64,000 nucleotides of DNA from an uncultured Bacillota bacterium (GTDB lineage Bacteria; Bacillota; Clostridia; Christensenellales; UBA1242): positions 16,232-80,231 of the forward strand of contig CAMRTM010000003.1 in NCBI GenBank assembly GCA_947053645.1. Reading direction: 5' to 3'. Position 1 is the first letter of the stretch; every line of letters starts with the position of its first letter. Below, piece after piece: positions 38,190-57,606 of the stretch. The notes below the pieces were generated by a model, which saw nothing but the letters and a program-made list of their open reading frames with translations, was not told the origin of the DNA and did not search any database. A program made the translations under genes and the position numbers.

Positions 38190-38191
38190 AC

Positions 38192-40906: not shown

Positions 40907-40919
40907 ATAGGAGGAAATT

Positions 40920-41456: not shown

Positions 41457-41465
41457 GAGGAATTT

Positions 41466-41786
41466 ATGGTAAGTGAGAATGAACTTGTATCTCTTATTGA
41501 TAAGGATAATGTAATTTACAATGTTTTAAAAGCAGAAAGATTAAATTATCCAGATAGAGAAGCAACACTTGAAGAAATTGAGTGTAGAAAACAAGAGGAA
41601 CAAAAGGAAAAACAAATTGGAATACTTAAACAAAGGCTAAGAGACTATAGTGATGATATAGTTCAAGATATGGCAGGAGAAATCGTTCCAGATATTGAAA
41701 AAAGAAAACTTGAATTTATGAGAACCCACGATTTGTTAAGAGCCTTATTAAATATGCCTATTAGGGATAAGAAAGGAGAAATATAA
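41466..41786 (+). CDS. Small acidic accessory protein (chaperone-like)
   Basis: 106 aa, charged and coiled. Sits directly after a fiber-tip gene, in the same position as the XkdW-like genes. Confidence 0.35.
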   Translation: MVSENELVSLIDKDNVIYNVLKAERLNYPDREATLEEIECRKQEEQKEKQIGILKQRLRDYSDDIVQDMAGEIVPDIEKRKLEFMRTHDLLRALLNMPIRDKKGEI

Positions 41787-42457: not shown

Positions 42458-42804
42458 TTAAGTACGAATTAGATGAAAACAATTTCTTAACTGGGAATTT
42501 TGCTTATGTTGGACAATTTGAAAGATTTGTGGAATTAGATAAAGAACTTAACGAAGTAAATAAAAATTTGCAATGGAATGGCACAAACTTCATTTTGTCG
42601 ACAAATCCAAAAGAAGTAGAAAGAGAACTTCGTGTGTTAAGAGAAGAAAGAGAGAAAGAATGTTTTTCTTTCATAAACAGAGGACAAATGTGGTATGAAA
42701 CGCTAAGTTATGAACAAAAACAAGAACTAAGAAATTGGTATATTCAATGGCTTGATGTAACAGAAACAAAAGTAATTCCAAATAAACCAACATGGTTAAA
42801 ATAG
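42454..42804 (+). CDS. XkdW-like fiber accessory/chaperone-like protein (intact)
   Basis: ..LRVLREEREKECFSFINRGQMWYETLSYEQKQELRNWYIQWLDVTETKVIPNKPTWLK. Paralog of the disrupted gene at 39979-40453. Confidence 0.5.
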   Translation: MIKYELDENNFLTGNFAYVGQFERFVELDKELNEVNKNLQWNGTNFILSTNPKEVERELRVLREEREKECFSFINRGQMWYETLSYEQKQELRNWYIQWLDVTETKVIPNKPTWLK

Positions 42805-42813
42805 GGGGAGTAC

Positions 42814-43452
42814 ATGGCAAAAGCGAATATAGAAGGAAATGTTAAAGCTGAAAGTTTAGAAGTTTCAGGTAACATTAAAGGCAATACGTTAGATTTAGAA
42901 GGCTCTTTTACAGCTCTTAAAAATAAAGGTGGTGGTTTTTCTATCTCAGATCCAGTAAATGTTGGTATAGAACTTGGGAGAAAAGATGGAACACCAGGTA
43001 CTCCATATATTGATTTTCATACAGACGGAAAGCCAGAAACAGATTATAACTCAAGATTAATTGCTGTTGGAGATATGTTAAGCTTAAATTCTTCTGAACT
43101 TCGTCTTAATGGGCCAACAGCAAGATTTAGTATAAATGGTGTTCGTCTTGGAGATTATGGGATTGAAATATTATCTAAAGCAGAAAGGGATTTACCAGTA
43201 GGCACTAATATAAGTTTAACACAACCGATTACGAATTTTAGTGCATTGGCAATAGCAATTGAACGCGATAATGTTATTAATGATATAAAATACTATCCAG
43301 TTTCACTTATAAAAGCATATATGAATAATTATGCTTTTACATGTCAAGGTTATGGTAATACATCATGTAAGTTCAGATTTACTGATATACAGCATATAAA
43401 CTTTCAAGCACATTATTATACTGGCTGGTTTCGTATATTTGGAATTGTGTAA
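42814..43452 (+). CDS. Fiber-tip-like protein 5 (paralog of 41786-42457)
   Basis: Same N-terminal module MAKANIEGNVKAESLEVSG..GTPGTPYIDFHTDG.., with a different C-terminal domain. Confidence 0.6.
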   Translation: MAKANIEGNVKAESLEVSGNIKGNTLDLEGSFTALKNKGGGFSISDPVNVGIELGRKDGTPGTPYIDFHTDGKPETDYNSRLIAVGDMLSLNSSELRLNGPTARFSINGVRLGDYGIEILSKAERDLPVGTNISLTQPITNFSALAIAIERDNVINDIKYYPVSLIKAYMNNYAFTCQGYGNTSCKFRFTDIQHINFQAHYYTGWFRIFGIV

Positions 43453-43473: not shown

Positions 43474-43506
43474 AAAAAAAGATACTCATTTCTGAGTATC
43501 TTTTTT
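43474..43506. terminator. Bidirectional terminator at the convergence point of the two island operons
   Basis: aaaaaaa-gatactca-tttc-tgagtatc-tttttt. Confidence 0.75.
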
Positions 43507-44097
43507 ATGTTTCTCTTTTTTTGGAGGGTTGTAAGCATACCAAGATTTCATTATTTCGTTAACATCTAATGAGTTTTTGCATTTCGACTCTACCATATTA
43601 AAGCTAATAAATGTTAGTAATTTTCGAACTTGATTTTTTGTATAATGATTAATACACATTCTTTCTTTTTTGTTATTAACCAATGTGAATTCCAAATACT
43701 TTTTAGGCATAGAGGATGAAACCCACTTCAATTGTATTTTTTTATTTTTAGAGTTTTTTTCGCTCGCAATAATTGATATATTTTGAATATCAATATATTT
43801 AATTTTGCATTTATACTGAATTTTTTCAAATTTTGGAAGCATATCGCCAAAAGTATATATATCTTCTTTCCTTAGATGAATTTTAAAGCATAGTAAAAAC
43901 CTTATAGAAGTATAAAGGAGAAAAATTATTGCCAACACAAATATTACGTGTTCGTGTGGTTGCAAGTGTAATGAGGGGATTTCGACTCCACAAAGAGGTA
44001 AGATGGAGATTGTCAAGTACAGTATTGACAACCCCCAAAAGAAACAATTTAACAGTATAAAGCCAATAGAATGAGGGACAAAAACTCTTTTTTTCAT
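43486..44097 (-). CDS. Membrane protein, candidate immunity for orphan toxin 3
   Basis: Three N-terminal TM segments plus a PH-like soluble domain. Lies immediately downstream of orphan rhs-CT 3. Confidence 0.45.
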   Translation of the reverse strand: MKKRVFVPHSIGFILLNCFFWGLSILYLTISILPLCGVEIPSLHLQPHEHVIFVLAIIFLLYTSIRFLLCFKIHLRKEDIYTFGDMLPKFEKIQYKCKIKYIDIQNISIIASEKNSKNKKIQLKWVSSSMPKKYLEFTLVNNKKERMCINHYTKNQVRKLLTFISFNMVESKCKNSLDVNEIMKSWYAYNPPKKEKHKKDTQK

Positions 44098-44108
44098 TTA
44101 TACTCCTT

Positions 44109-45056
44109 TTATGTTAAAGCGGTTTTGAATATGTCAATGACTGATCCGTATAATGCCAAACCAAACATCTTTCCAAAGGTTTTCCAAGAGATATGCCTAA
44201 TTAAATCTCTTCTAAATTTTGTGTAAATCTGATCAGTTATTGCACTCCAACTTCCTCTACCATAGGTAATACCTTTAACTGAATATTTCGTATTTATTAT
44301 ACCAACGAATGCCATAGAAACAAAACCATTAATTGCGCCGTTTACTAAAGAACCAACGAGATTAAATTCCGTACCATAAATAGCATGATTAAAGGCATCA
44401 CTTAGGACGGTAGATACTAAGCCAGTTACGAAAGCAGAAATATAAGTACCTACTCCAGGGATGATGGAGAAAGCTCCACCTATAAATCCGCCAATAGTAC
44501 TGCCCAGGAAATCTCCCCAAGACCATTCCCATTTGCCAGTTACAATACCTTTAACTACAACTGATGCTGTATATGAGACTGCTCCTACAGCGGCACCAAT
44601 GGCGGCTGCAATTAGCAATCCAATAAGGAAGCTTAAGAAATAGCCGTTTTCATCAACACCATTTACAGGATTGTTTAAACAATATGCATAAAGGTTTAGT
44701 CCATTAATGGTAATTTTTGTTATGTCAAGTGTAGTAATATCATCTGCATTAATAAATCTGCCAAGTTCAGGATCGTAATACCTACTATTTAAGTAATAAA
44801 GATTAGTTTCAAAATCATAGTAGTAACTGCGATATCTAAATGGATTTTTAAAAGTAATAAACGCATTTATATTACTAATATCATTATACTTAAAATCATC
44901 ATCAATTGCAACAAAATCATAAGTTATCTTACCATCATTTGTGATTTTTTCACCCCAAAATTCCAGTTTCTGATTTCCCCAAGCATCATATGTATAACGA
45001 GATATTTGTTTACCAGTTGAATCATATATGCCAATTATATCATTTTGAGCATTTTC
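44109..45056 (-). CDS. Orphan rhs C-terminal cassette 3 (core-end fragment + Gly-zipper/hydrophobic toxin domain)
   Basis: I traced a continuous frame from 45056, directly after a TAA. It reads ..NDIIGIYDSTGKQISRYTYDAWGN..FKNPFRYRSYYYDFETNLYYLNSRYYDPELGRFINADD..LYAYCLNNPVNGVDENG, then a G/A/I-rich hydrophobic domain. There is no start codon until a TTG at 44618. Confidence 0.75.
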   Translation of the reverse strand, partial: ENAQNDIIGIYDSTGKQISRYTYDAWGNQKLEFWGEKITNDGKITYDFVAIDDDFKYNDISNINAFITFKNPFRYRSYYYDFETNLYYLNSRYYDPELGRFINADDITTLDITKITINGLNLYAYCLNNPVNGVDENGYFLSFLIGLLIAAAIGAAVGAVSYTASVVVKGIVTGKWEWSWGDFLGSTIGGFIGGAFSIIPGVGTYISAFVTGLVSTVLSDAFNHAIYGTEFNLVGSLVNGAINGFVSMAFVGIINTKYSVKGITYGRGSWSAITDQIYTKFRRDLIRHISWKTFGKMFGLALYGSVIDIFKTALT

Positions 45057-45167
45057 TTATACTAATCTTATGAACAGAAATAAAAATTAAAAGGATTAAT
45101 CATTTTTAGTTAGATGTATCAGAAATAAAAGTGATTTGCACAAAACTAATTTGTTTAATATAGATAT

Positions 45168-45201
45168 AAAAAAGATAGACTTATTTTAGCCTATCTTTTT
45201 T
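45168..45201. terminator. Hairpin terminator closing orphan cassette 2
   Basis: aaaaaagatag-acttattttagc-ctatctttttt. Confidence 0.6.
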
Positions 45202-45223
45202 ATACTCAATTTTATATTATTTG

Positions 45224-45658
45224 TTATGATAATTTTTTAATAACAGAGTATTCATCATAAATTGTTTTATCAAAGATAATCCCGCAATCAGTAAAACTAT
45301 TTTCAAAATAGATGAGAGCATTATATTTTTCAATGTCTTTGTTTGAATTTAGAATTATATTCTGATCAAAAATGTAAAATGATAAGTTTACAATATTATT
45401 GTAGAATTCATTTGATAGGATTAATTCCACATCATTTATACTTTTAAGAAGATAGAAATTTTCAAAATTTAAAAGGCTCTTATAGTTTCCAGGAATACAT
45501 TCACGAAAAAAGCCTGTGAATACAACTTTAGCACCTTTATTTGCAAAAGAGTATAAAATCTTCTTTGCTTCTTGTAATGAAAAATCTTCACCATCCGATA
45601 GCTTAATGAAATATTGTTTTTTTCTTCCGAGATAAAAATAGTTTTTCTTGATTTTCAT
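45224..45658 (-). CDS. Hypothetical cytoplasmic protein, candidate immunity (cassette 2, second gene)
   Basis: ATG at 45658 has AAGGAG upstream. No TM segments. Position within the cassette. Confidence 0.4.
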   Translation of the reverse strand: MKIKKNYFYLGRKKQYFIKLSDGEDFSLQEAKKILYSFANKGAKVVFTGFFRECIPGNYKSLLNFENFYLLKSINDVELILSNEFYNNIVNLSFYIFDQNIILNSNKDIEKYNALIYFENSFTDCGIIFDKTIYDEYSVIKKLS

Positions 45659-45751
45659 AATATCTCCTTTTATCTTGTACCTCCTATGAGTCCACCTATA
45701 ATAGCCCCAAGTTGTTAATAAGATAAATTTGAGCAAACTTTTTATTCTTGA

Positions 45752-46045
45752 TTAATTTTTATTTTCTTTTTCTATAATTACAAATGAAGAGTCTTTTGAA
45801 AGATGTCCAAAAGTATTAGGGGTTAATGGATCTAAATGAATAGAAAAATCGTTATCTAGTTTATTTTCTGAAATCGTTATCAGTAATTTTGCTAAAGATA
45901 ATAAATCTTTTTGTTCTCCATTTATAATAATATATTTTGATTTACTATCAAATTTAATCGATAGACCAGATAAGTCTATGTCTTTTAAGACAGATGATTT
46001 ATTAATTTCTTTGTCATCAAGTATATTGATTTCAATTTTTTTCAT
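45752..46045 (-). CDS. Small protein, candidate immunity for orphan toxin 2
   Basis: 97 aa. Starts 10 nt after the orphan 2 stop, with GGAGGA RBS. Confidence 0.45.
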   Translation of the reverse strand: MKKIEINILDDKEINKSSVLKDIDLSGLSIKFDSKSKYIIINGEQKDLLSLAKLLITISENKLDNDFSIHLDPLTPNTFGHLSKDSSFVIIEKENKN

Positions 46046-46054
46046 ATTATCCTC

Positions 46055-46957
46055 CTATTTAATTACTGACCACCATTTAAATAGTTTGTAAAACAAATGA
46101 TTATTTCCACCTGGCAATATATAGTTCCCCTTTGAACCTATTGGGAAAGCCCAGCTTTCTAGATTAAAGTGAGGTCCATATTTTCCATGACCTTTATAAT
46201 CCCATCTTAACTGTCGCATACCATCTTTAGAAATCCATCTCTTATTTCCAACTTTGTTATATCCTTTTCCTAAAAACTTTTGCCCCTGCTTTGCTGCCTT
46301 AAATTGACCTGTGGAGTGGTAAACTCCTAAAATCATACTTCCAACAGCAGCAACACCTTCGGTAATTCCACTAAACCAATTGTAAGCAGTTTCGTTGCCT
46401 TGGAATATGCCATCGCGTATAAAGTTATAGTTTGTACCTGCTTCGATTAATGTCGCGATTCCATCAACTGCAGTTAAAACGCCTGCCACCAATGTTACCC
46501 CAGCGACAATCCCCATTAATAACGGAATTCCTGCTCCAAATGTTGTGACAGCTAATACGATAGCAGTTACTGCTGTGAAGATTTTTCCAATTGCCTTCCA
46601 GAACTTTTTCCAGCTCCAATTTCCAGTAGTGTCTGAATCATTTACAGGGTTATTAAAACAGTAAGCATAAAGATTTAATCCATTAAGTTCATCCATTGTT
46701 TCTGTTAAAATAGAAACATCATCTGCATTAATGAATCTACCAATTTCAGGATCGTAATATCTACTATTTAAGTAATATAAATTGGTTTCAAAGTCATAAT
46801 AGTAACTACGATATCTGAATGGATTTTTGAAAGCAATGAAAGCATTGATTTCACTAATATCATTATACTTAAAAGCATCATGGAATACAACATATTCTTC
46901 GATAATTTCTCCATTTTCTTTGATGTTTTTGCCCAAATATTCAGTTTTTACATTTCC
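46055..46957 (-). CDS. Orphan rhs C-terminal cassette 2 (core-end fragment + TM segment + C-terminal toxin-like domain)
   Basis: Frame opens at 46957, right after a TAG. GNVKTEYLGKNIKENGEIIEEYVVFHDAFKYNDISEINAFIAFKNPFRYRSYYYDFETNLYYLNSRYYDPEIGRFINADD..NNPVNDSDTTG, then hydrophobic helices and ..RWDYKGHGKYGPHFNLE... The track start is a TTG at 46936. Confidence 0.75.
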   Translation of the reverse strand, partial: GNVKTEYLGKNIKENGEIIEEYVVFHDAFKYNDISEINAFIAFKNPFRYRSYYYDFETNLYYLNSRYYDPEIGRFINADDVSILTETMDELNGLNLYAYCFNNPVNDSDTTGNWSWKKFWKAIGKIFTAVTAIVLAVTTFGAGIPLLMGIVAGVTLVAGVLTAVDGIATLIEAGTNYNFIRDGIFQGNETAYNWFSGITEGVAAVGSMILGVYHSTGQFKAAKQGQKFLGKGYNKVGNKRWISKDGMRQLRWDYKGHGKYGPHFNLESWAFPIGSKGNYILPGGNNHLFYKLFKWWSVIK

Positions 46958-46958
46958 C
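46821..46958 (-). repeat. Recombination-grade homology block shared with the main rhs gene
   Basis: Hand alignment: 137 of 138 nt identical to 49914-50051. Homology continues with more mismatches down to about 46700. Confidence 0.85.
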
Positions 46959-47010
46959 TAATTTAATATAATTTGGATTAAAAGGAAAAGATTGAAAAGT
47001 TTTTAGGTAA

Positions 47011-47043
47011 TAAAAAACATTGGCATAACCACCAATGTTTTTT
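47011..47043. terminator. Hairpin terminator closing orphan cassette 1
   Basis: aaaaaacattgg-cataacca-ccaatgtttttt. Confidence 0.75.
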
Positions 47044-47100
47044 ACGACATTAAAATAGGAGTAAGTTGTAAACTCAAGTTTATTATTGAAATCTGATTTT

Positions 47101-47490
47101 TTAGAATGTGTCAATTATTGTTTTTTTAGATGTAAAAACCTTTACATTAGGTTTACCTTCCCACTTATCTTTATTAAAAGATTTCTTATCAACAAATTTG
47201 AAAGGTCTTTTAAGGGGAGTTATTCTCTTGTATTGAATGACAATCATATTTCTTAATGTCTCTATTATAAAATTAAGAATATCTTGATCTTCTATTCCAT
47301 AGTAAAAGATTGAATTTATATATACATTAAAGAGCCCATTATTTTTATCAAAACAAATTTCCATTCTAAAATCTTCATGGAATATTATTTTAATTATGTT
47401 GTGAATAATTGAAACTTTTGACTTTAATTCATTTTCGGTTGATAATTGATTGTACAAATCAGTTATTGTCTCTACAAATCCATTTTTCAT
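47101..47490 (-). CDS. Hypothetical cytoplasmic protein, candidate immunity for orphan toxin 1
   Basis: 129 aa, immediately downstream of orphan 1. No recognisable motif. Confidence 0.4.
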   Translation of the reverse strand: MKNGFVETITDLYNQLSTENELKSKVSIIHNIIKIIFHEDFRMEICFDKNNGLFNVYINSIFYYGIEDQDILNFIIETLRNMIVIQYKRITPLKRPFKFVDKKSFNKDKWEGKPNVKVFTSKKTIIDTF

Positions 47491-47534
47491 AGCATTTTCT
47501 CCTATAATTTGTTTTATTTATTTTTAATCAAGCT

Positions 47535-48566
47535 TTATTTATTTCTAATAAAATATGATCCTAAAACTGCACTGGTGTTCCAAAGTCCTGTTAGGAAACC
47601 GGTTCTAGCAATTGTGATAGCGGCACGTGTTAGCCCCATATGTATGTGAAGTCCATGTGCCAAACTAGCCTCAAGTCTAAAGAACCCATTTCCACTGCCA
47701 AATCGAGCAAAAGTGAAACTGCCAGATTTTGAACCAAACATAAAGGCGGCTTTACTATTTTTAAGATTTGGAATGACTCTTTGTGCCCAGTTGGTTTTTC
47801 CAAGCAAGCCCAAGGCCTTCCCAGCTGCACCAAAGATGGCTCCAGAAATTGCTCCAGTGGCAGCACCAATCAATGCCTCAGTCCCAACTTTCTTCCAGTC
47901 AATGTTTTCATAACCAACAGTAAGACCTTGAGAGATTATGTTGACACCTGCACCTATTACAAGTCCCGTTAACGCACCTGTTACAGCACCTCCAACAGCT
48001 CCACCAAATATAGTCGCCGCAATGCCTCCGCCTAGTGCACCTCCAATTGCTGATGCTATACCAGCCGTAGCAACTGTTATTGCAACTACGGCGACAATAG
48101 TTACGACCGCTACTACAACTGTTATTAGCCACTTTAGCCATTTTGGTAGATCTCCATTATCATCAGATGTGTTAATTGGATTATTGAAGCAGTAACAGTA
48201 AAGGTTAAGCCCATTTATTACATCTTTTGTGGTATCAAGATTGCTAATATCATCTGCATTAATGAATCTGCAAATTTCAGGGTCGTAATATCTACTATTT
48301 AAGTAATATAAATTGGTTTCAAAGTCATAATAGTAACTACGATATCTAAATGGATTTTTAAAAGTAATAAATGCATTTAGATTACTAATATCATTATACT
48401 TAAAATCATCATCGATTGCAACAAAATCATAAATTGTTTTACCATCATTTGTGGTTTTTTCGCCCCAATATTCCAGTTTCTGATTTCCCCATGCATCATA
48501 TGTATAACGAGATATTTGTTTACCAGTTGAATCATATATGCCAATTATATCATTTTGAGCATTTTT
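47535..48566 (-). CDS. Orphan rhs C-terminal cassette 1 (core-end fragment + Gly/Ala-rich hydrophobic toxin domain)
   Basis: I traced the frame codon by codon. It is open from 48566 (after a TAA) to 47535 and has no ATG/GTG/TTG until the TTG at 47873. Reads ..NDIIGIYDSTGKQISRYTYDAWGN..RYYDPEICRFINADD..NNPINTSDDNGDLPKW, then a TM and Gly-zipper region. Confidence 0.75.
   Translation of the reverse strand, partial: KNAQNDIIGIYDSTGKQISRYTYDAWGNQKLEYWGEKTTNDGKTIYDFVAIDDDFKYNDISNLNAFITFKNPFRYRSYYYDFETNLYYLNSRYYDPEICRFINADDISNLDTTKDVINGLNLYCYCFNNPINTSDDNGDLPKWLKWLITVVVAVVTIVAVVAITVATAGIASAIGGALGGGIAATIFGGAVGGAVTGALTGLVIGAGVNIISQGLTVGYENIDWKKVGTEALIGAATGAISGAIFGAAGKALGLLGKTNWAQRVIPNLKNSKAAFMFGSKSGSFTFARFGSGNGFFRLEASLAHGLHIHMGLTRAAITIARTGFLTGLWNTSAVLGSYFIRNK
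48331..48566 (-). repeat. Homology block shared by orphan cassettes 1 and 3
   Basis: Aligned by hand with 44821-45056 (offset 3510): 12 mismatches in 236 nt. Weaker similarity continues for ~70 more nt. Confidence 0.8.
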
Positions 48567-48674: not shown

Positions 48675-49049
48675 TTATTGATGGCTTATTTTAATTAATA
48701 TTAACTGAGTGATTACAACATAGAGAATTTCTAATCCTAGAATTGAAAGAGTCACAATAAATGCAATTTCTAAGGAGTTTTGTAATAAACAAAGTAATAA
48801 AATATCAGTGATTAAAGTTAACAAGGAAAGTAAATATCCCATTATTTGCATAATGTATAGCGGTATTGCCAAGCCTTCTGAAACGGGTATACCGTCAGGT
48901 GCTCTGAATAAGAACCTGAATTTTTTAATTTTTTTGCACCTAAAAGCGCCGTTATTAACTCCTGACTTAAATTGAGAGAATACTGGTAAAGCTGCTATAA
49001 AGAATATAAACAACGTTATACATATTCCCATTATTATTTTATCACCCAT
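48675..49049 (-). CDS. Multi-TM small membrane protein, candidate cognate immunity of the main RHS toxin
   Basis: 124 aa with 3-4 TM segments. Starts 14 nt after the rhs stop, with GGAGG RBS. Confidence 0.55.
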   Translation of the reverse strand: MGDKIIMGICITLFIFFIAALPVFSQFKSGVNNGAFRCKKIKKFRFLFRAPDGIPVSEGLAIPLYIMQIMGYLLSLLTLITDILLLCLLQNSLEIAFIVTLSILGLEILYVVITQLILIKISHQ

Positions 49050-49063: not shown

Positions 49064-52000
49064 CTATTTAATATTAAATTTATTTAATGCCCAATTTATA
49101 ATATTGTTAAGAAAAGTAAAACTGCCATATGTTATCATTGCCCCAGTAAACATTTTAAACATTTGTTGTCCCACAGCCGCTGTCATTTTATTGGTAACTT
49201 GCGTTAGTGCTGATTTCATCCCTTGTGCTGTGGCGTAATAAGTTCCTGAGGCTATTCTATTCTGAACAGCTTTTAAGCTCATTGCGGCCTTTTGGACATT
49301 ATGTGCAGAACCAACAGCTTTTGCGTTTTGTGTTCCTGCACCAGCAATCAGACCTGAGACTCCGCCAACAACCACACTAATTCCGAAACTTATCCAATTT
49401 ATTTCGCTTAGTGACGCTCCACCTATTAATTGTGAGGCAAAGTTAGAAATACCACCAATACCTGCACCAATTAGCATTGAACCTATTTTGGAAATCCCAG
49501 ATACACCAAGTAATCCAGTTATTGCTCCGACTCCAATATCTAAAGCAAATTGTCCCCAGTTTAATTCTCCGTTAAAGATGGCTTGTGAGCCTAATGATAC
49601 TCCTGCACCAATCGCTGCCCCTACAAATGCCGCTCCAACTAGGCCACCAGTAAATATAGAGCCAACGACTAGCCCTACGACAATAAATCCTGCCAGTAAC
49701 CATTCCCACCATTTTGTTGTTCCAAATGGGTCAGTAAAATATATTGGATTATTCCCACAGTATGCATAAAGATTTAAACCGTTGAGTGACTCGGCATCAA
49801 GATTACTAATGTCGTCAGCATTAATGAATCTGCAAATTTCAGGGTCGTAATATCTACTATTTAAGTAGTAAAGATTGGTTTCAAAGTCATAATAATAACC
49901 ACGATACCTGAAAGGATTTTTGAAAGCAATGAAAGCATTGATTTCACTAATATCATTATACTTAAAAGCATCATGGAATACAACATATTCTTCGATAATT
50001 TCTCCATTTTCTTTGATGTTTTTGGCCAAATATTCAGTTTTTACATTTCCCCAGGCGTCATAGGTGTAGCGAACAATTTGTTTTCCATTAGAATCGTAAA
50101 TCCCAATAATATCATTTTGCAAATTCTTCTTATAGAAGAAATCAGCATCTACAATATTGTTTTTCAAATGGAAACCAGTTATGTCATCAGCTCCGTAGTA
50201 GAATGTAAGGTCATTACAGCAGTCGTGTTGTTTAATAATTTTTTCACCATTAAGGAAGAATTGAGTAGTAAAAGGTTTTTCACAAAGACAATCTTCTGTG
50301 CATTCACAATTAGCACCATTAAACTTGAATCGAGGATGGTCAGTATAAATGGTTTTACTTGTTCTAATTCCGTTTGCATTGTATTTGTAGTCAACTAATT
50401 GACCAATAATTTTATTGTTTTCATCTTTAAGTACATCAAATGCATCAAGTTGTCTGCCATTAGACCAATCGAGTTTCAAGTCTTTATATCTTGTTGGATT
50501 TCCAAGTTCATCATACTCAAACTTTCTACCATTTAACATGATAAGTTGATCTCGCCAGCCAGAAGTAGGGTATGAGTAAACAAAAGGAGTGGATTCAATT
50601 GTATCTAAATTGCCTGTTAATGTAAAAGGATATTCCAATCGTTGAGTGATATTATCGCCAGCATCATATGAGTAAACAGAAGTTTTTCCTATTTTCTTAT
50701 TATCTTCACGAATGATGCGGGATAGTCCATCATATTGATAACGTGCGATCAATTCATTATTTATTCTGACCTCAGTGATATTACCTTTACTATCATATGA
50801 ATAATGCATATTTTCGTTGGCTTCGCTTTTACTTGAAAACTTGATATTAGAAATAAGATTTGATGAGTGGTCGCCAGATTTCAAATAATTATATTCTTTA
50901 TTTATATTACCACTTTCAATTTGTTTCACTCTGCCAAGCTTATCATATTTGATAATTTGTTCAATTTCATTAGGAAGCAGAACTCCTTTAAGTTTGGGTT
51001 TAACTTCGTTTGAATAATTGTAGTTATAGAAAAGCTCCTCATCTTCAATAGTTATAGTGCTGTTTTCTACATTTGAATGTTCATCATCATAACAATTTTC
51101 AACTAGAACCTTTTTACCGTGCTGTTTTGTTTCTTCTTTGTAAGTATTACCAAATTTATCAATAAAAATTTTACTGATTTTTTCTTCAGCAGTTCCATCT
51201 TGGTTATAGATAAGTTCTTTTACAAACACTAAGTTTCCATAAGTATCGTAAATGTTTTGAGAAACTAGCCTTTCAGCAGGGCTTGGATCCTCATCAGTTG
51301 GTTTAGGAGTAAAATATGTTTCAACAACATTCCCATCATCATTGAGTGTTTGTCTAAATGTTTCTTGATTTGCAAATTTTGTGATTTCATTTTTGATAGT
51401 TTTATTACTAGATGTTGTATCATCTTCAATTGGTTCATCAATATACTCTTTGACAAGATATTCATTGTTTGCGATTGAGATTCTGGAAATATCTCCATCA
51501 GAATTATAGTCATAATCAACTGAGAAATCATTGTGTTTAAGGCTAGTTAATGTATCAAGATAATAGCCATACGTATTTGTATTTTCAATTCCATTAATTG
51601 TTGATGAAATCTCAAGTAGATTGTTGTCTGGGGTATAGCCGTAACTAATTTTAGTGCCATCTTCATATGTCTTTGACGTTATTATACCAGTACCTTCAAT
51701 GTACTCAAGCTTTGCTCCATCAAAGCCTAACTCGTTAAGCTCTTTTGTAGATTTACCTTTTTCATCTAGGCAACTTTCTTGATAGAATTTAGAAGAAGGC
51801 TCATCCTTGTTATAGGTTATAGATTTTACAACTAATCCTTGTTCATTATAAGTATTTTCATTGACAATACCATCGCAATTTGTTGTTCTAATTAAGCTGC
51901 CTTGTTTATTGTATTCATAAACTATCTCAAGTGGTTCTGCTCCCGACTTGTTAATTTCCGATTTCTTGTAAATCAATTCCTTCGAGATTCTTGTAGAGTC

Positions 52001-55000
52001 ATCTTCGTATTCAAATTTGGTTACCCATTGGGAATGTGCATTTGATTTTTCTACAAGACGGGTTTGTTCATCATAGATAGATTCCTCAAAATCGGCTTCT
52101 TTAAATTCCAAATCAGTAAATTCAATTTTTCCAGTATTGTTTGAATAATCAATTATGCATTTAACTTCTGAGACAATTTTATCTGAATTGATGTAAATAG
52201 GGACAGAACAGAATTGCCAATCAGTGTTGCGCCAATCAAATGATTTCTTTTCAATCTGAGGTTCATTATCATTGAGATAGGTGACTTCAATCCTCAATTC
52301 AAATTTTCTTTTTTCAAGATAGGTTGTAGGTGTTTTATCTTCTATATTTTCTTTTTCAGCAATATAAGCAGAATTTGCTTTTGCCCAACCAGACAACATA
52401 TAGGCTTTATGGTTGCAGTCCTTATATGAAAGATTTATCTTGTTTTTCATTTTTTTGCTCATATACACTTGCTCAAATTTGTTGATAGAATTGTCATCTA
52501 GAGAGTGGAATTTTTCACAAATTTTATATGAATATGGTATTGTATCAGCTCCACAATAAGTATTACCAAGATATAGTGCATGCTTAATGGTCCGAGGCTC
52601 TTTAAAACATTCATCACTCAATAAATTCTCAGAATAAGGGAGTTGACTAATTTTGGCAGAAGTTTTGTTGTTGTGATAGTTAAACTCTGTTGCTCTGGAG
52701 CAGTTATCCTCCGAATTTTGTTTAAAGTTATTTTCATACATTGTACGAACTTTTCCAAGATTATCAAAGATATAAGTAATACTTTTATTGTTAGATGTAA
52801 TTGTGGTTGACCTAAGATTGTTTTTTCGAATGTAGGTGGTTTTACCCGTATTTTTCTTTTCTGCAAGAATAACATTCTCATCTGCAAAATCATCAAAAGT
52901 AAGAGAGTTTTGATATTCAATGTCTCCGTTTTTGATTTCAGTAATAATGGAGAAATTCTCTATATTCAAGTCTACAACATTTCCAGATTCACTAGGAATA
53001 AGAGATTTGTTTATAATTACACCAAATCCAGATTGGTCTACCACTAATTGCTTGTCTTTATTGGTAAGAAAATAGTTGCTTTTAGAATCATTAGTATGTG
53101 TAATTTGGAACAATTTGTCGTTAGGGGTAGCGAACTTTACAATTCTATCTTTGCTATCAATAATTGACTCCAAAACAGAGTAATCATTATTATAATTAAA
53201 AAGAATTGTTTTATCTGCAGAATCGGTAATTGATTCGATTGTATTTGAATCAAAGTCTTTATATTTGATAAATATTGTGTTCTCATAAGGGTCTGCAATT
53301 AAAATTAGACGGAACAGATTATTGTTGTCTATTTTTGCTTTGCCAAAACCATAAATAACATTTTCATCGTTATATAAATAATGAATAGGGGATTGAATTT
53401 CAAGAAGGTTTAGTTGATTTTGATACTTTTCAAGTTGTTCGTTGCATTCAGTTAAGAGTTTGTTATTTTTATTAATAGATTTTGCCAAACTTTCAAGTTG
53501 TAGATCAATAGAGATGATATCTTTAAGAGAAAGGATAAATGCATTTTTAATCTCATTTTCGTTATTAGAGAATGTCTCTGGATATTTGAAGCTCTTATAA
53601 ATAGAACCAAGATCTGATATTTCTATTCCAAGGCGAGATAATTCTTTACCAATTGTTTCCTTAAAAGTTTGTTCTTCTATATCTGTATAGTAAAGATTTT
53701 TATTTAAAAGATAAGCTTCTTCTTGAGAATCTAAAGTGCTCTTAAATGGATCTGGATTTTCGCTATCCCAAAAACCAAGGGAATATATAAATGAAGATTC
53801 ATTAGAAATAATGCTTCCAAGGATGACTTGATCTTCAGAGATTGTGTATGATCCAGCGGCTCTTCCACCGACGCCACCACCACCGCCACCACCGCCAGAG
53901 CTTCCACCGAAGCCACCGCCACCAGGAGCTGAGCTACCATGTTTCAAACAATTATCATAGACTTTTAATATTTGAGAATAGGTGAGGGGATTCTTTCCTA
54001 CAAGATCCTTTGCTGTACTATTATCGCTTCCAGTTTGAAGTCGATATAGTCTATTATTTTCAGAACAAATCTTTCTAATGATTTCAATTTTTCTTTGAAA
54101 AGCGAGCATATTACTTTCATTTTGAACTGATTCTTTTTGACTATTAAATTGTTGTTGAAGAGCATTTTTAGTTAGTACATAAAGACAGAATTGCTTTTTA
54201 CTACTTTTTAAGCTGTTTTCAATATCTTCTTTATTTCTATCTAATTGTTTGATTTGTTGTCTTACGTTAATCACTTCTTCAGGTTCATAGTCTACTAACT
54301 TAGATCCGTCAATATCTTTTATAGAAGCTACGAGTTTAAGACCAGATGGGGCTTCAAGTATGGTGTGTACTTTTTTGTTTTCATACATCAAATCTCCATT
54401 AGGGCTTACGCTTAATTGTCCATATTCCAGAAAATGTTTCTCTTTATTTTCAATGTAATAATATTTTTCTTCAATTAACTGATTTTTTCCATTTCCATCA
54501 ATATATGTAAATCTGAGCCTGTTTGTAGAGTCGTCTTTTATGAGGAATTGTTGAACATTAAGTCCCCAATTGTCAGGTAAACCAGTGGTTGGCATTAACT
54601 CATTTTTTACTGAATTATAATGTGCAGCGATAGAGAGTGGCAACACATTATTATCTGAAGAAACAAGTGGAACAGACAAAGCAACCTGTTGCGTGGCTAA
54701 GTCTATTGATGCTGAACCTGCTTTGCCTAAATCAATGTTGTGTGAACTTCCATTGGCTTGAAACTCAGAAAGTGAAATATAATCAATGTTGAGCTCGCTA
54801 TCTTCAAGTTGAAGATGTTCTCCAGTTAATGTTTTAAAGAGAAGTGTTATTTGACTATAATTATTGTCCAAACAATATTGAACTTCATCACTTAGGTTTA
54901 GTGTGAGAATATCAACATCATTTGAGGCTTCAATGGAGTCAACATTCCACCTATCTGATTCATTTGGCTTGAAGTCTATATCAAACCTTGTAGGGAGAGA

Positions 55001-55132
55001 TTCAGTTTGAACTATTTTAAGGTTCAAATAAGCATCTACAACTTTGATGTTCTTAGTAAGATCTTCTAGTGGAATACTAAGAGTGTTTTCGCTGAAAACA
55101 AATTTCTGCGAATTAATTGTAACATTTTTCAT
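49064..55132 (-). CDS. RHS/YD-repeat polymorphic toxin (2022 aa) with Gly-zipper/hydrophobic C-terminal toxin domain
   Basis: Dozens of YD-type repeats (..YxYDxxGN..), e.g. YEYNKQGSLIRT, YSYDSKGNITEV, YQYDGLSRIIRE, YSYDAGDNITQR. Core end FKNPFRYRGYYYDFETNLYYLNSRYYDPEICRFINADD..LYAYCGNNPIYFTDPFGT. The ~240-aa C-terminal domain is rich in G/A/I/V. No signal peptide. Confidence 0.9.
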   Translation of the reverse strand: MKNVTINSQKFVFSENTLSIPLEDLTKNIKVVDAYLNLKIVQTESLPTRFDIDFKPNESDRWNVDSIEASNDVDILTLNLSDEVQYCLDNNYSQITLLFKTLTGEHLQLEDSELNIDYISLSEFQANGSSHNIDLGKAGSASIDLATQQVALSVPLVSSDNNVLPLSIAAHYNSVKNELMPTTGLPDNWGLNVQQFLIKDDSTNRLRFTYIDGNGKNQLIEEKYYYIENKEKHFLEYGQLSVSPNGDLMYENKKVHTILEAPSGLKLVASIKDIDGSKLVDYEPEEVINVRQQIKQLDRNKEDIENSLKSSKKQFCLYVLTKNALQQQFNSQKESVQNESNMLAFQRKIEIIRKICSENNRLYRLQTGSDNSTAKDLVGKNPLTYSQILKVYDNCLKHGSSAPGGGGFGGSSGGGGGGGGVGGRAAGSYTISEDQVILGSIISNESSFIYSLGFWDSENPDPFKSTLDSQEEAYLLNKNLYYTDIEEQTFKETIGKELSRLGIEISDLGSIYKSFKYPETFSNNENEIKNAFILSLKDIISIDLQLESLAKSINKNNKLLTECNEQLEKYQNQLNLLEIQSPIHYLYNDENVIYGFGKAKIDNNNLFRLILIADPYENTIFIKYKDFDSNTIESITDSADKTILFNYNNDYSVLESIIDSKDRIVKFATPNDKLFQITHTNDSKSNYFLTNKDKQLVVDQSGFGVIINKSLIPSESGNVVDLNIENFSIITEIKNGDIEYQNSLTFDDFADENVILAEKKNTGKTTYIRKNNLRSTTITSNNKSITYIFDNLGKVRTMYENNFKQNSEDNCSRATEFNYHNNKTSAKISQLPYSENLLSDECFKEPRTIKHALYLGNTYCGADTIPYSYKICEKFHSLDDNSINKFEQVYMSKKMKNKINLSYKDCNHKAYMLSGWAKANSAYIAEKENIEDKTPTTYLEKRKFELRIEVTYLNDNEPQIEKKSFDWRNTDWQFCSVPIYINSDKIVSEVKCIIDYSNNTGKIEFTDLEFKEADFEESIYDEQTRLVEKSNAHSQWVTKFEYEDDSTRISKELIYKKSEINKSGAEPLEIVYEYNKQGSLIRTTNCDGIVNENTYNEQGLVVKSITYNKDEPSSKFYQESCLDEKGKSTKELNELGFDGAKLEYIEGTGIITSKTYEDGTKISYGYTPDNNLLEISSTINGIENTNTYGYYLDTLTSLKHNDFSVDYDYNSDGDISRISIANNEYLVKEYIDEPIEDDTTSSNKTIKNEITKFANQETFRQTLNDDGNVVETYFTPKPTDEDPSPAERLVSQNIYDTYGNLVFVKELIYNQDGTAEEKISKIFIDKFGNTYKEETKQHGKKVLVENCYDDEHSNVENSTITIEDEELFYNYNYSNEVKPKLKGVLLPNEIEQIIKYDKLGRVKQIESGNINKEYNYLKSGDHSSNLISNIKFSSKSEANENMHYSYDSKGNITEVRINNELIARYQYDGLSRIIREDNKKIGKTSVYSYDAGDNITQRLEYPFTLTGNLDTIESTPFVYSYPTSGWRDQLIMLNGRKFEYDELGNPTRYKDLKLDWSNGRQLDAFDVLKDENNKIIGQLVDYKYNANGIRTSKTIYTDHPRFKFNGANCECTEDCLCEKPFTTQFFLNGEKIIKQHDCCNDLTFYYGADDITGFHLKNNIVDADFFYKKNLQNDIIGIYDSNGKQIVRYTYDAWGNVKTEYLAKNIKENGEIIEEYVVFHDAFKYNDISEINAFIAFKNPFRYRGYYYDFETNLYYLNSRYYDPEICRFINADDISNLDAESLNGLNLYAYCGNNPIYFTDPFGTTKWWEWLLAGFIVVGLVVGSIFTGGLVGAAFVGAAIGAGVSLGSQAIFNGELNWGQFALDIGVGAITGLLGVSGISKIGSMLIGAGIGGISNFASQLIGGASLSEINWISFGISVVVGGVSGLIAGAGTQNAKAVGSAHNVQKAAMSLKAVQNRIASGTYYATAQGMKSALTQVTNKMTAAVGQQMFKMFTGAMITYGSFTFLNNIINWALNKFNIK

Positions 55133-55171
55133 TTTCTTATTCTCCTTTTAATTTTTTAGTTACAATTCAAT

Positions 55172-55233
55172 TATAATTCCCAGAAATTCTCATGCATTCT
55201 AACTTTTGCTAATCCTTGCTAATTCGTGCTAAT
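55172..55233 (-). promoter_or_regulatory. 62-bp leader with four phased 10-bp repeats (copy B, upstream of the rhs gene)
   Basis: Reverse complement reads attagcacgaattagcaaggattagcaaaagttagaatgcatgagaatttctgggaattata. Ends 39 nt before the rhs ATG and overlaps the last codons of the sigma-like gene. Confidence 0.75.
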
Positions 55234-55605
55234 ATTGGGTTGCATTTTAGATGTTATCAATATTAGTTGGTTTAATGCATCGCTATGTAACTGATAAATT
55301 CGCTTTGTTGAGAAGTGAATTTTATCAGCGATTTGGTCAAATGTAAAAAAGCTTATATATCTCATATATAGAATAGTTCTATAAGGTTGTTGAAGTTTTT
55401 GTATTAAACTTTCAATATATTTCTTCCTTTCTAGAATTTTCTTAATTTCTAATTTTTCAGTTTCTTTTGTATCAATTAAAAATGCAGAATCGTGTTGATT
55501 CATAGTGAGTTTATTGAATAATTCAACCTCTTTAAACTTTTCGGTTAAGTATTGATTATCAAACCAGTAACTCTCAAAGAGTTCTTTCAACTTTTCCCTT
55601 GTCAT
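55219..55605 (-). CDS. Small sigma-70 region-4-like protein / phage late-activator-like regulator
   Basis: C-terminal ..YRTILYMRYISFFTFDQIADKIHFSTKRIYQLHSDALNQL is a region-4-type HTH, as in small phage sigma/RinA/ArpU-like activators. ATG at 55605 has GGAGGTGG upstream. Confidence 0.55.
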   Translation of the reverse strand: MTREKLKELFESYWFDNQYLTEKFKEVELFNKLTMNQHDSAFLIDTKETEKLEIKKILERKKYIESLIQKLQQPYRTILYMRYISFFTFDQIADKIHFSTKRIYQLHSDALNQLILITSKMQPNISTN

Positions 55606-55719
55606 TTCCACCTCCAAAAGTTTTACTATATGTAAACATAATATCAAATGTGTAAACAAAAAATCAAGCAAAAAGTTGTTTTTTTTGTATAAATGTCGAT
55701 TTATGTCTAAAAATTTTTG

Positions 55720-55729
55720 TTAACAACTA
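55720..55729. promoter_or_regulatory. Perfect palindrome TTGTTAACAA in the divergent promoter region (candidate XRE operator)
   Basis: Lies between the sigma-like gene and the XRE gene, about 18 nt upstream of an extended -10 (TGGTATAAT at 55747-55755). Confidence 0.35.
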
Positions 55730-55780
55730 GTAAAATTTTTATTATTGTGGTATAATACAAATAATAGGAGATGAAAATTT

Positions 55781-56125
55781 ATGTTTAAACATAAACTAAG
55801 AGACCTTAGGAGAGAAAGAAAACTTACTCAAGATGCTCTAGCAAAGCTTTTGAATGTTGGCAAAACAACAATATGCTTTCTAGAAACGGGAGTTCGTGAA
55901 CCAAGTGTTGAAATGTTATTTAAAGTAGCGAAAGTGTTTGGAGTTACTACTGATTGGCTTATGGAAGATGACTCCATAACAATAAAAGAAAGACCACAAG
56001 TAAATACGGTTACTATAATTGGTAGGGGTGGAACATACACAACAATTCAATTGAAAGATGATGAAATTAACGAATTGAAGAAAATTGCGCAAGAAATGTA
56101 TGACAATGATAAAAAAGACAAATAA
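55781..56125 (+). CDS. XRE-family repressor-like HTH protein
   Basis: LRDLRRERKLTQDALAKLLNVGKTTICFLETGVREPSVEMLFKVAKVFGVTTDWL is a canonical HTH_3 domain. Confidence 0.8.
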   Translation: MFKHKLRDLRRERKLTQDALAKLLNVGKTTICFLETGVREPSVEMLFKVAKVFGVTTDWLMEDDSITIKERPQVNTVTIIGRGGTYTTIQLKDDEINELKKIAQEMYDNDKKDK

Positions 56126-56558
56126 CGAAATAAAACTTATTGGGCGAACAAAGAATAATAATAATTTATTGAGAGTTGACCATAAGCGTTCAAATAATGA
56201 AAGTATAATTGAAGAAATTGCCGACAGCTTTATTCTAAAAAACAATGTTTATAGGTTGCCTGTTGATGTTGTTGAGATAGTGAAGAATAATGGATGGTTT
56301 TTACTTCCTTTCACGAAAGCTCCTAGTTTTATTTATAATAAATACTCAGATTTGTTGTATACAGATTGGGGATTTACACTTCAGTTAGATAATCAATATT
56401 ACATTTTTTATGACGACAAGATTAAACTGGAGATTCAGAGATTTACAATAGCACACGAAATTGGACATATTGTACTAAAACATTTTAAGGATGAGAATTT
56501 TTGTATTATAATATATGTGTATAAGGAAGAAAAAATAGATGAAATACATTTTGCTTGA
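56085..56558 (+). CDS. ImmA/IrrE-family metallopeptidase-like protein (probably C-terminally truncated)
   Basis: HEXXH motif in FTIAHEIGHIVLKH. The ORF stops about 30 aa later, right after ..EIHFA, where family members normally continue. Start uncertain (56085 or 56100). Confidence 0.55.
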   Translation: MRKKCMTMIKKTNNEIKLIGRTKNNNNLLRVDHKRSNNESIIEEIADSFILKNNVYRLPVDVVEIVKNNGWFLLPFTKAPSFIYNKYSDLLYTDWGFTLQLDNQYYIFYDDKIKLEIQRFTIAHEIGHIVLKHFKDENFCIIIYVYKEEKIDEIHFA

Positions 56559-56565: not shown

Positions 56566-57606
56566 ATTTATGAGAACGAAGGTTTTAACTTTAACCAAGG
56601 ATATTTAAAGATAATAGAGACTCTGTGTAAAAATGGAGACTTGAAATTATTTAGCCACGCAATAATAGAGGGAGAGGTAAAGGCTCATATAATTGAAAAG
56701 GTTAATGAATTTAGGATAGGTGTAAAATCATTAAAAAAACTCTCATATATTTTCTATAATCAAGCAAGTTATAAAATACTAAAAAAGTTTAATGAAGAAT
56801 GGTACGATGAAAATTCTTTACTTGCGTACAAAAACTTTTTAGAATCTTCTAAGCCAATTATGTTGGGGAATAATGAAATAAGCCTTGATAAACTGGTAAA
56901 TGACTATTTAAAACGAGAACCACCATTTGGAATTGGGAAAAAGAAAAATGAATTTCCTGATGCGATTATCCTAAATGCATTATTAAAGTTTGAAAAAAAA
57001 GATCGGGATGAAATTTATATAATTTCTTCAGATAATGACTGGATTCATTTTTCAGAGAAATACAAAATTCCTTGTTATAACACCATATATGGTTTTATGA
57101 GTGAAGTAATGTCTGAAGCAGAACAAAATATGATATACACAGATGCTATAAAAACTTGGATAGCTAATGATAAAAATAAAAACCTCATCGAAGCAAGGCT
57201 TATGACGGAACTTGACACAATGATGGAGAAGCGTCATGATGATTATGATGAAATTGAACACGATTCTTTAATAAAAAATTTAGATGACTTTGAGTGCATT
57301 TGTTTCAATTTAGAAACCAAAGAGCTTAGTTTTCAAATGACTTTTGATTGCGACATAAAATATCTTTTATCATATGAAGATTACGACAATGCAATTTATG
57401 AACGTGAGTATGGTAAGTGGTATAACTTGGAGTATGTGACTGACAAGTATGAAGATTCGACTATTGGTGTGGCGGTTATTGGCTTAAAATTTGACATTAA
57501 AGGAGAACGTGTTATCATTAAAGACTTTGATGCAGTTGAAGTTCTTCAGTTGGAAGATGATGAATTTAAACATACGAGGATAAAGCCTAATTATTATTAT
57601 GATTGA
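56566..57606 (+). pseudogene. PIN-like (DUF4935-type) protein gene with damaged 5' end
   Basis: ..KNEFPDAIILNALLKF..IYIISSDNDW.. fits my recollection of DUF4935. The frame is open from 56566, but the only nearby ATG (56562) is out of frame by one nt at a T run. The track start is a TTG at 56641. Confidence 0.4.

Follow-up and report, generated by a model that had tools for sequence, protein, structure and literature searches.

A probable phage-derived, two-tier transcriptional switch at an RHS polymorphic-toxin island of uncultured gut Clostridia

Introduction

The Ltr superfamily comprises late-gene activators of Gram-positive phages and is divided into the families RinA, ArpU, LtrA/Sigma70_r4, LtrB/DUF1492 (family III) and LtrC (Quiles-Puchalt et al., 2013, PMC3753634). 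Ltr proteins, including members of LtrB/DUF1492, have been shown experimentally to activate the terS late promoter and bind 7-nt direct repeats directly distal to their own gene, and the ltr genes of phages are cI-controlled (PMC3753634). Here we describe a locus in which a gene predicted to encode such an activator stands directly in front of a giant RHS toxin gene. The locus lies in a 64,000-nt stretch of DNA from an uncultured Bacillota bacterium (contig CAMRTM010000003.1 of assembly GCA_947053645.1, positions 16,232–80,231 of the forward strand; low G+C, about 30–40%), hereafter referred to as the window. A preliminary description of this DNA had proposed a phage-type switch wired to an RHS toxin gene and fibre-like genes. 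The family of the activator, a shared repeat promoter and the conserved gene order support this proposal, and we consider it likely that the locus represents a phage-derived transcriptional switch with two tiers, now put to use in the control of an RHS polymorphic-toxin island. As judged from their sequences, its components, a switch of the ImmR/ImmA type and an Ltr activator from phages, belong to known kinds and have been redeployed onto the island.

For the upper tier, the closest described systems are repressor/peptidase pairs. The M78 peptidase CapP, which is grouped with ImmA/ImmR and IrrE/DdrO, cleaves its repressor CapH upon binding single-stranded DNA (ssDNA). As at the present locus, ImmR/ImmA (ICEBs1, phage phi105), CapH/CapP (cyclic oligonucleotide-based antiphage signalling systems, CBASS) and DdrO/IrrE consist of an HTH_3 repressor and an overlapping gene for an M78 peptidase with an HExxH motif, and the pair is divergent from the promoter that it controls. 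Here, however, the pair would control an activator gene and not the output operon directly, and the peptidases (200–213 aa) are shorter than the capP profile of 242 positions, with the window copy truncated after the HEIGH helix.

Damage-sensitive repression, a phage late-type promoter and a release that costs the producer are combined in the SOS-induced colicins and pyocins and in the Q-dependent Shiga toxin. This is the same logic as proposed here, but the proteins are unrelated, and the present locus carries an RHS polymorphic toxin with orphan cassettes in Gram-positive hosts. In Clostridioides difficile's pathogenicity locus, PaLoc (TcdR/TcdE), and the UviA/UviB-bcn locus of Clostridium perfringens, as here, a phage-related positive regulator is found beside a very large signal-less toxin, together with a small phage-like membrane protein proposed for release. 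TcdR and UviA are complete group-5 sigma factors, whereas the regulator described here has a sigma-4-like domain only; likewise TcdE belongs to a recognised holin family, whereas the protein with three transmembrane helices (3-TM protein) described here matches none. In Yersinia entomophaga a Tc toxin with an RHS-type cocoon is released by lysis via a holin/endolysin/spanin cassette, the type 10 secretion system (T10SS; PMC10847048). Both loci link a signal-less RHS-shell toxin of regulated expression to phage-derived lysis-type genes, but the Yersinia system is Gram-negative, its holin, endolysin and spanin genes can be recognised, and its regulator is a different one (PMC10847048); our locus shows no peptidoglycan hydrolase.

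Results

Layout of the Locus

The features of the locus are listed in Table 1. Two operons converge, their promoter copies facing each other: the leftward operon comprises rhs, a putative immunity gene and orphan cassettes, and the rightward one the 3-TM gene, f1 and fibre-like genes. The repressor, the activator, both repeat promoters and the 2022-codon rhs gene are all intact in the window.

Table 1. Coordinates of the features of the switch and the toxin island in the window.
Feature	Position	Strand	Basis
tRNA-Leu(TAG), left edge of the island	37842–37923	+	ARAGORN, Rfam
P_hol, second copy of the repeat promoter	38189–38259	+	71-nt inverted repeat with 55166–55236, 92% identical
"Holin-like" 3-TM protein, coiled-coil tail of ~105 aa, heads the second operon	38315–38956	+	AlphaFold2 model
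f1 (147 aa) and fibre-tip-like proteins with small chaperone-like genes	38959–43452	+	Collar E 1e-21 and 3e-10; Gp10_C E 1e-10; PHROG tail-fibre families
Orphan rhs C-terminal toxin/immunity cassettes	43486–48141	-	RHS core-end repeat, glycine-zipper content
Putative immunity protein, 124 aa, membrane	48675–49049	-	Directly 3′ of rhs, hydrophobic
rhs, 2022 aa, RHS core and glycine-zipper/TM-rich C-terminal toxin	49064–55132	-	RHS_repeat E 8.6e-18; Rhs_assc_core E 6.7e-19
P_rhs repeat promoter	55166–55236	-	Five 10-bp-phased hexamers (55232–55187) and TATAAT (55175–55170), no -35
ltr, Ltr-type late-gene activator (DUF1492/LtrB, sigma region-4-like HTH), 128 aa	55219–55605	-	Pfam, phrog_36, AlphaFold2 model
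Divergent control region	55606–55780		Sequence, promoter scan
XRE-family repressor (ImmR/CapH-like), 114 aa	55781–56125	+	Pfam HTH_3 E 3e-16; PADLOC capH E 4.6e-11
Truncated M78 metallopeptidase (ImmA/CapP/IrrE-like)	56100–56558	+	Pfam Peptidase_M78 E 2.8e-6; PADLOC capP E 5e-9

The 128-aa Protein Resembles Phage Late-Gene Activators

A start at ATG 55605, preceded by a GGAGG ribosome-binding site, gives the ltr product the same length as all its homologues; the mechanical open reading frame call extends the gene to TTG 55671. The protein matches Pfam DUF1492 (PF07374) with 30.1 bits (cut-off 21.5; E 5.8e-7), Pfam Sigma70_r4 with 28.5 bits (cut-off 24.1) and phrog_36 ("transcriptional regulator") with an E-value of 7.6e-13, and most of its homologues carry precomputed DUF1492 matches. 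An AlphaFold2 (AF2) model built from 17 homologues (mean predicted local distance difference test score, pLDDT, 82.6) consists of a helical hairpin (residues 3–33/41–69) followed by three helices (75–84, 89–96, 100–120). The three C-terminal helices superpose on sigma region 4 with 1.1–1.6 Å over 52–60 residues, sigma region 4 accounts for all top PDB fold matches, and a PDB sequence profile search found region 4 of SigF. The sigma region-4-like helix-turn-helix (HTH) that the preliminary description had seen in this protein is thus confirmed. The other families it had named for comparison were not recovered: ArpU (TIGR01637) reached 19.6 bits with a cut-off of 43.1, no RinA model was listed, and the TcdR comparison found no sigma region 2. 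The recognition helix YSTKRIYQLH is invariant among the homologues, a conservation inflated by the use of the peptides TKRIYQLH and EDYWYDNQ as baits in the genome scan; L038, a locus found independently, has YSKKRIYQLH.

That description had also likened the locus to toxin and bacteriocin loci controlled by sigma factors of the TcdR/UviA family. A true alternative sigma factor of this type would take the place of sigma-A on core RNA polymerase at the promoters of rhs and the 3-TM gene, in analogy to the toxin loci under TcdR-family control. Sigma70_r4 and many sigma profiles do match, and the target promoters have no sigma-A -35 element. However, the NCBIfam sigma profiles align with the C-terminal third only (e.g., FliA positions 125–219 of 224) and score far below their cut-offs (20–31 bits versus 43–457), the target promoters keep a normal -10 element (TATAAT/TATACT), and the best-matching family, DUF1492/LtrB, is described as activators. 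Furthermore, a protein of 128 aa made up of a hairpin and a sigma-4-like HTH has no region 2 for core binding and -10 melting, and hence cannot be a sigma factor of the TcdR/UviA type. We therefore find this explanation improbable, and the TcdR analogy holds for the logic of the locus only.

By profile and model, then, the 128-aa protein is an Ltr-type phage late-gene activator of the LtrB branch. It shares with the superfamily a length of ~130 aa, a helical fold with a C-terminal sigma-4-like HTH, a gene directly 5′ of the target operon and behind a CI-type repressor-controlled promoter, and 7-nt direct repeats that begin at the end of its coding sequence. It differs from the phage proteins in what it would act on: in place of terS and the morphogenesis and lysis genes there is an RHS toxin gene, together with a separately placed operon behind the same promoter, and in the window and ~30 related loci the gene that follows ltr is rhs. 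A further difference is that the derepressed transcript starts with ltr and carries no other gene, instead of being a long early operon with the activator gene at its end. Finally, the locus lies outside a phage, with no close relative in IMG/VR or INPHARED: an IMG/VR scan with the Ltr alignment gave 123 pattern matches of which none was confirmed, tblastn against INPHARED gave three weak matches confined to the HTH region, and the exact 26-nt promoter-core pattern had no match in IMG/VR. In the JGI metagenome collection this pattern was found once, again preceding a 3-TM gene. The clade is small, with 70 clusters at E ≤ 1e-10 among 928 related clusters. A keyword search of the literature gave no description of the Ltr/RHS arrangement, and within the literature searched the wiring of Ltr to RHS seems to be undescribed.

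Two Copies of a Repeat Promoter Face Each Other

The minus strand of P_rhs reads ATTAGCAcgaATTAGCAaggATTAGCAaaagTTAGAAtgcaTGAGAA, followed by 11 nt and TATAAT. Its hexamers are TTAGCA at 55232, 55222 and 55212, TTAGAA at 55202 and TGAGAA at 55192. Seen as the 7-nt unit ATTAGCA, the array has three copies followed by two TTAGAA-type units in 10-bp register, starting from the last ltr codons. In unit length and position this fits the 7-nt direct repeats of the Ltr family. The end of ltr runs into the array: its last codons and its stop codon TAG (55221–55219) coincide with the first two repeats, the stop codon being in the second of the five hexamers, as the preliminary description had pointed out for the leader of rhs. 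In L020, L021, L024, L026 and L030, where Ltr is shorter, the repeats are wholly intergenic; thus, the C-terminal "ISTN" of the other Ltr proteins appears to be a by-product of the repeats.

P_hol has the same geometry, with TTAGCA at 38193, 38203 and 38213, TTAGAA at 38223, CGAGAA at 38233 and TATACT at 38250–38255. It is located 55 nt 5′ of the 3-TM gene and 17 kb from P_rhs. A sigma-70 scan found a good -10 element and no -35 element at both promoters, and exact matches to the two-repeat pattern occur nowhere else in the 64 kb.

The leader between ltr and rhs (ATG at 55132) contained no terminator, its predicted RNA fold was no better than that of shuffled sequence (z = +0.96), and a search of Rfam with it found no RNA family, the tRNA being the sole Rfam match. 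Thus, the repeats probably act as DNA, and rhs may receive additional transcription by read-through from the ltr promoter. On account of the Rfam result and the fold, we no longer read the leader as a riboswitch or attenuator.

One further inverted repeat was seen between the two operons. It is 30 nt long (41692–41721/52291–52320, 87% complementary), connects the fibre cluster with the interior of rhs, is AT-rich and is probably due to chance.

Gene Order and Repeats Are Conserved Among Related Loci

For comparison we used 44 related loci (L001 onwards) from metagenome-assembled genomes of gut Clostridia; they represent one group of uncultured gut Clostridia, and the counts below are not independent events. 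The Ltr homologues, 83% down to 36% identical, include those of Candidatus Caccovivens. Every long contig read had the order M78←XRE | Ltr→RHS (1,800–2,090 aa)→small gene. The Ltr→RHS order was held over the whole range of Ltr identity in different chromosomal flanks, and in most loci ~85 bp separate the ltr stop from the rhs ATG, a spacing found with about 25 distinct Ltr sequences. In nearly every locus with visible upstream DNA an XRE homologue is divergent from ltr, whatever lies beyond, and in ~20 of the related loci, as in the window, this HTH_3 repressor gene is followed by a co-oriented M78 HExxH gene.

The repeat element is conserved in ~30 related loci. When 37 sequences were scanned with the 26-nt core and ≤6 substitutions were tolerated, 43 copies were found: 30 before rhs, one at the same position at a contig end, nine before the 3-TM gene, two before an f1-like gene (one site in two overlapping loci) and one before ltr. 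Five further copies in loci retrieved independently via the 3-TM protein gave the same picture, bringing the total to 48. The elements lie 2–110 bp upstream of, and are co-oriented with, rhs, the 3-TM gene, the f1-like gene or ltr.

The Divergent Repressor and Peptidase Pair

The preliminary description had placed an XRE repressor and a HEXXH ImmA/IrrE-like peptidase divergently from the 128-aa protein, and both are indeed there. The capH match covers almost the entire length of the repressor, and a full-length relative of the peptidase matches capP with an E-value of 9e-19. ATG 56100, rather than TTG 56085, is the realistic start of the M78 gene, which then overlaps the XRE gene by 26 nt, as it does in the relatives. 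The window peptidase retains HEIGH and is colinear with full-length relatives (207–213 aa) to about residue 136 (…FTIAHEIGHIVLKHFKDENFC), after which it diverges and stops. The alignment partners, the L003 (211 aa) and L007 (207 aa) homologues, are both complete, and the truncation suspected earlier is real. The 3′ end of M78 has given way to a PIN_12-domain gene (56641–57606, 321 aa, E 9.5e-16), which was not found in the related loci read and had no PADLOC match.

The perfect palindrome and the duplicated GTTTACA that had been noted in the divergent region are also present. The promoter scan predicts an ltr promoter with TTGATT (55667–55662), an 18-nt spacer and TATTAT (55643–55638) with a TG motif. 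On the minus strand, GTTTACA occurs in its spacer (55657–55651) and again just past the -10 box (55637–55631), where it belongs to the inverted repeat TTTAC-N5-GTAAA (55622–55636). A repressor bound at these sites would block RNA polymerase. The predicted xre promoter has an extended -10 (TGgTATAAT, 55748–55756), and the palindrome TTGTTAACAA lies upstream of it at 55717–55726; it is conserved in the two closest relatives only. At the corresponding position, related loci have inverted repeats that are analogous but not identical, and their XRE proteins differ as well.

Between the divergent promoters, at ~55685–55710, we also observed TTAGACAT-like direct repeats (minus strand TTTTTAGACATAAATCGACAT), which L001 and L003 share. 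Given their similarity to the TTAGCA/TTAGAA units, they could be a site of Ltr autoregulation.

The recognition helix and the repeats are nearly invariant, while the XRE proteins (27–84% identity) and the inverted repeats at the ltr promoter vary. From this contrast we argue that the TTAGCA array is the target of Ltr and the ltr promoter that of XRE. The same contrast bears on another explanation, in which XRE/M78 is an independent damage-responsive or toxin-antitoxin-like defence module and ltr-rhs is autonomous, or in which the TTAGCA repeats are XRE operators. CapH/CapP-type pairs do regulate many unrelated operons, M78 is missing or truncated in several loci, and NCBIfam gave weak matches to repressor/antitoxin families. 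Yet XRE is divergent from ltr in nearly every locus with visible upstream DNA, the inverted repeats sit on the core of the ltr promoter, the TTAGCA repeats stay constant while XRE diverges to 27% identity, and precisely the loci that lack Ltr (L040/L041, see below) lack the repeats as well. We thus give this explanation little credence and retain the two-tier arrangement, in which the pair acts on ltr.

Variant Loci

In L040/L041 (9076–18575) there is neither Ltr nor the repeats. Instead, an HTH+Peptidase_S24 (LexA/CI-type) repressor is divergent from one operon containing the 3-TM gene, a 94-aa gene, a 416-aa Gly_rich_2 fibre, a 149-aa gene, RHS and immunity, with a canonical promoter (TTGACA-17-TAAAAT) flanked by GTTGTAAAAT repeats. 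The single operon indicates that the 3-TM protein, the fibre protein and RHS form one unit, and suggests that this three-part unit has been placed under damage-type repressors more than once.

L036 (7888–16177) and L019, on one contig (JAFQFI010000045.1), contain two Ltr paralogues. One is paired with XRE-M78; the second is behind a TTAGCA promoter and heads the 3-TM gene and then RHS. The arrangement suggests a regulatory cascade or positive feedback. In L044 the 3-TM gene is present and fibre genes are absent.

The 3-TM Protein and the Fibre-Like Operon

In the AF2 model of the 3-TM protein (213 aa), helices at residues 14–38, 43–72 and 79–111 are followed by a charged coiled-coil tail, and the charge distribution suggests an N-out/C-in orientation. 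The modelled topology resembles that of a class I holin with a long coiled-coil tail: holins have 1–4 transmembrane helices and a charged cytoplasmic C-terminus, and at 213 aa the protein is about twice the usual size. Of the three-TM holin-like protein of the preliminary description, the gene and the three helices stand, with no match to a holin family or fold; "holin-like" denotes the modelled topology, from which a holin function would be predicted. We found 146 homologues at ≥49% identity, none Pfam-annotated or named, and the gene is near the RHS gene in all loci read except L022 and L023.

The genes at 39435–43452 encode five small fibre-tip-like proteins (two Collar, one Gp10_C, two of no known family) with a common N-terminal motif, M-x-x-x-N/S-x-EG-x-h-x-h, and differing C-termini. 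They alternate with genes for proteins of 76, 106 and 116 aa, of which the 76- and 116-aa proteins share …RG-x-x-WY…EL-x-x-WY-x-x-WLD-V/I-T. From their sequences, the set looks like exchangeable receptor-binding tips with their chaperones.

The RHS Toxin Gene and Its Cassettes

The island has the repeats, core, variable C-terminus, immunity gene and orphan cassettes that define RHS polymorphic toxins. Sequence, Pfam and NCBIfam showed neither a signal peptide nor an LXG- or PAAR-type N-terminus in the RHS protein; a protein search with its residues 1–260 found three fragments only, and PHROGs gave no match for residues 1–620. A small gene follows RHS in every related locus. Among the orphan cassettes, 46055–46936 repeats the end of the RHS core (…YDPEIGRFINADD…), those at 44109–44618 and 47535–47873 are rich in glycine zippers, and tblastn found additional RHS C-terminal matches in related loci. 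Glycine zippers and TM segments abound in RHS residues ~1810–2022 and in at least two of the orphan C-terminal domains, and the immunity candidates beside them are membrane proteins; the toxins thus probably act on membranes. An abortive-infection reading was rejected because an immunity gene follows every RHS and orphan cassettes are found here and in several relatives, both of which are typical of competition systems.

Flanking Regions

The outer flanks of the loci vary and include a PAPS-reductase/UvrD/LexA block, a surface-protein gene, phage replication genes and, in the window, the PIN gene. The block, found beyond M78 in L003, L007, L008 and L010–L012 (~200–8900), consists of a 957-aa protein of no known family, a UvrD-type helicase, a PAPS_reductase (DndC-like), a class-V aminotransferase and LexA, and may be a DNA-modification or defence module. 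In L013 (1–9500) the XRE-M78 side abuts co-oriented genes for an SNF2 helicase, a primase, a Q-like/DUF722 protein, HNH and a small terminase; these phage/satellite genes may belong to a neighbouring prophage or hint at the origin of the module. An inovirus-like Zot/Rep pair is next door to L036. L022 adjoins a homologue of the flavodoxin-like gene at 57874 in the window.

Just 5′ of the intact tRNA-Leu(TAG) of the window there is a degenerate tRNA-Leu-like pseudo-copy (37715–37810) with 5′ GCGGATATGGCG, an insertion and then TGGCAGACGCGTTGGATTTAAATCCAG. The ~19.7-kb island to the right of the tRNA has no integrase, a search for a repeat of the tRNA 3′ end (an attachment site) at its right edge gave nothing convincing, and no packaging, capsid or tail-tube genes were found at the window locus.

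These data also bear on whether the locus is the debris of a decayed prophage, incidentally adjacent to rhs and transcriptionally dead in this genome. The phage-type components, the truncated M78 with a PIN_12 gene in place of its end, the missing integrase and the phage replication/terminase genes abutting L013 would all fit such a history. Decay is contradicted by the ~85-bp Ltr→RHS spacer kept in ~25 distinct Ltr sequences and several flanks, by the integrity of both promoter copies, rhs, ltr and xre, and by the viral databases, where IMG/VR holds no close Ltr relative or 26-nt core match and INPHARED only the weak HTH matches. The phage genes of L013 and the Zot/Rep pair of L036 are contig-specific neighbours outside the conserved unit, and on these grounds we rejected the prophage-remnant reading; debris with an incidental rhs adjacency is unlikely. 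One part of it is left as plausible, namely that this copy is no longer inducible through M78.

Discussion

In uncultured gut Clostridia a repressor/protease pair and a small activator appear to control a giant RHS gene and a partner operon. We propose the following sequence of events for the two-tier switch. In the first tier, as suggested by homology and the position of the sites, XRE would bind the inverted repeats over the spacer, -10 box and start site of the ltr promoter and keep ltr off. In relatives with an intact M78, the co-transcribed peptidase would, by analogy, cleave the repressor after a DNA-damage/ssDNA signal. We infer this coupling to DNA damage from the CapH/CapP- and ImmR/ImmA-type homology together with the S24-repressor variant. 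In the second tier, family membership, repeat architecture and conservation suggest that Ltr binds the 10-bp-phased ATTAGCA/TTAGAA repeats and activates two -10-only promoters. One would drive rhs, the immunity gene and the orphan cassettes, and the other, facing it, the 3-TM protein and the fibre-like genes.

Besides the bait effect on the recognition helix and the relatedness of the loci compared, a number of points weigh against this proposal. Ltr binding, promoter activation, repressor cleavage and induction are all steps that we infer from the DNA. The Foldseek E-values for the sigma-4 match are weak (0.02–0.3), since the domain comprises only ~55 residues. A search for LexA (Cheo) boxes found none near either promoter, and their counts were below chance. 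The peptidase of the window ends in …HEIGHIVLKHFKDENFC and has lost ~75 C-terminal amino acids, including the E-x-(E/D)-A-N-x-F-A…LLMP segment, which in the M78 class carries the third zinc ligand (a layout known from CapP); a complete peptidase has an HExxH motif, a downstream Glu ligand and a C-terminal regulatory region, and the window copy falls short of this. With the C-terminal third gone, the damage-sensing step is probably disabled and the trigger probably defective in the window, and this copy may not be inducible via M78. M78 is missing altogether in L001, L022, L030 and L038, so the protease is either dispensable or often lost. L022 has XRE|Ltr and the 3-TM/fibre operon without RHS, and L035 has XRE-M78|Ltr with neither the element nor RHS. 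Finally, the 3-TM protein matched no holin family in Pfam or PHROGs and its best BFVD fold match had E ≥ 0.23, and no peptidoglycan hydrolase or endolysin domain was found in any locus read.

What follows the switch is more speculative. The signal-less RHS protein could exit the cell with the 3-TM protein, and the fibre-like proteins could direct it to its target; as RHS has no signal peptide and the 3-TM protein no holin match, release by the latter and targeting by the Collar/Gp10_C proteins are offered as hypotheses. Tentatively, and with considerable doubt, the locus might be a bacteriocin-like system of gut Clostridia, in which upon DNA damage a subpopulation would make a signal-less RHS cocoon with C-terminal domains active on membranes, the dedicated and highly conserved releasing 3-TM/coiled-coil protein (a new holin-like family, without a recognisable endolysin) and exchangeable fibre tips for the choice of target cells. 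If true, this would be a Gram-positive counterpart of colicin, pyocin and Tc-toxin release, with an origin in the attachment of a phage late activator and its late promoter to a polymorphic toxin.

How large signal-less RHS/YD toxins are expressed and exported in Gram-positives is a question that the locus touches, and it offers a testable model: a damage-type pair, an Ltr activator and two repeat promoters. As a compact pairing of activator and promoter, the invariant recognition helix and the 71-nt element could also find use as a genetic tool. The locus would be an example of an Ltr-family phage late activator outside a phage, apparently undescribed in the literature searched. An RHS toxin, a 3-TM protein and fibre-like proteins recur as one regulon in many uncultured gut Clostridia, and the S24-repressor variant points independently to the same three-part unit. 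The locus also suggests that the production of interbacterial toxins in the gut may be tied to DNA damage.

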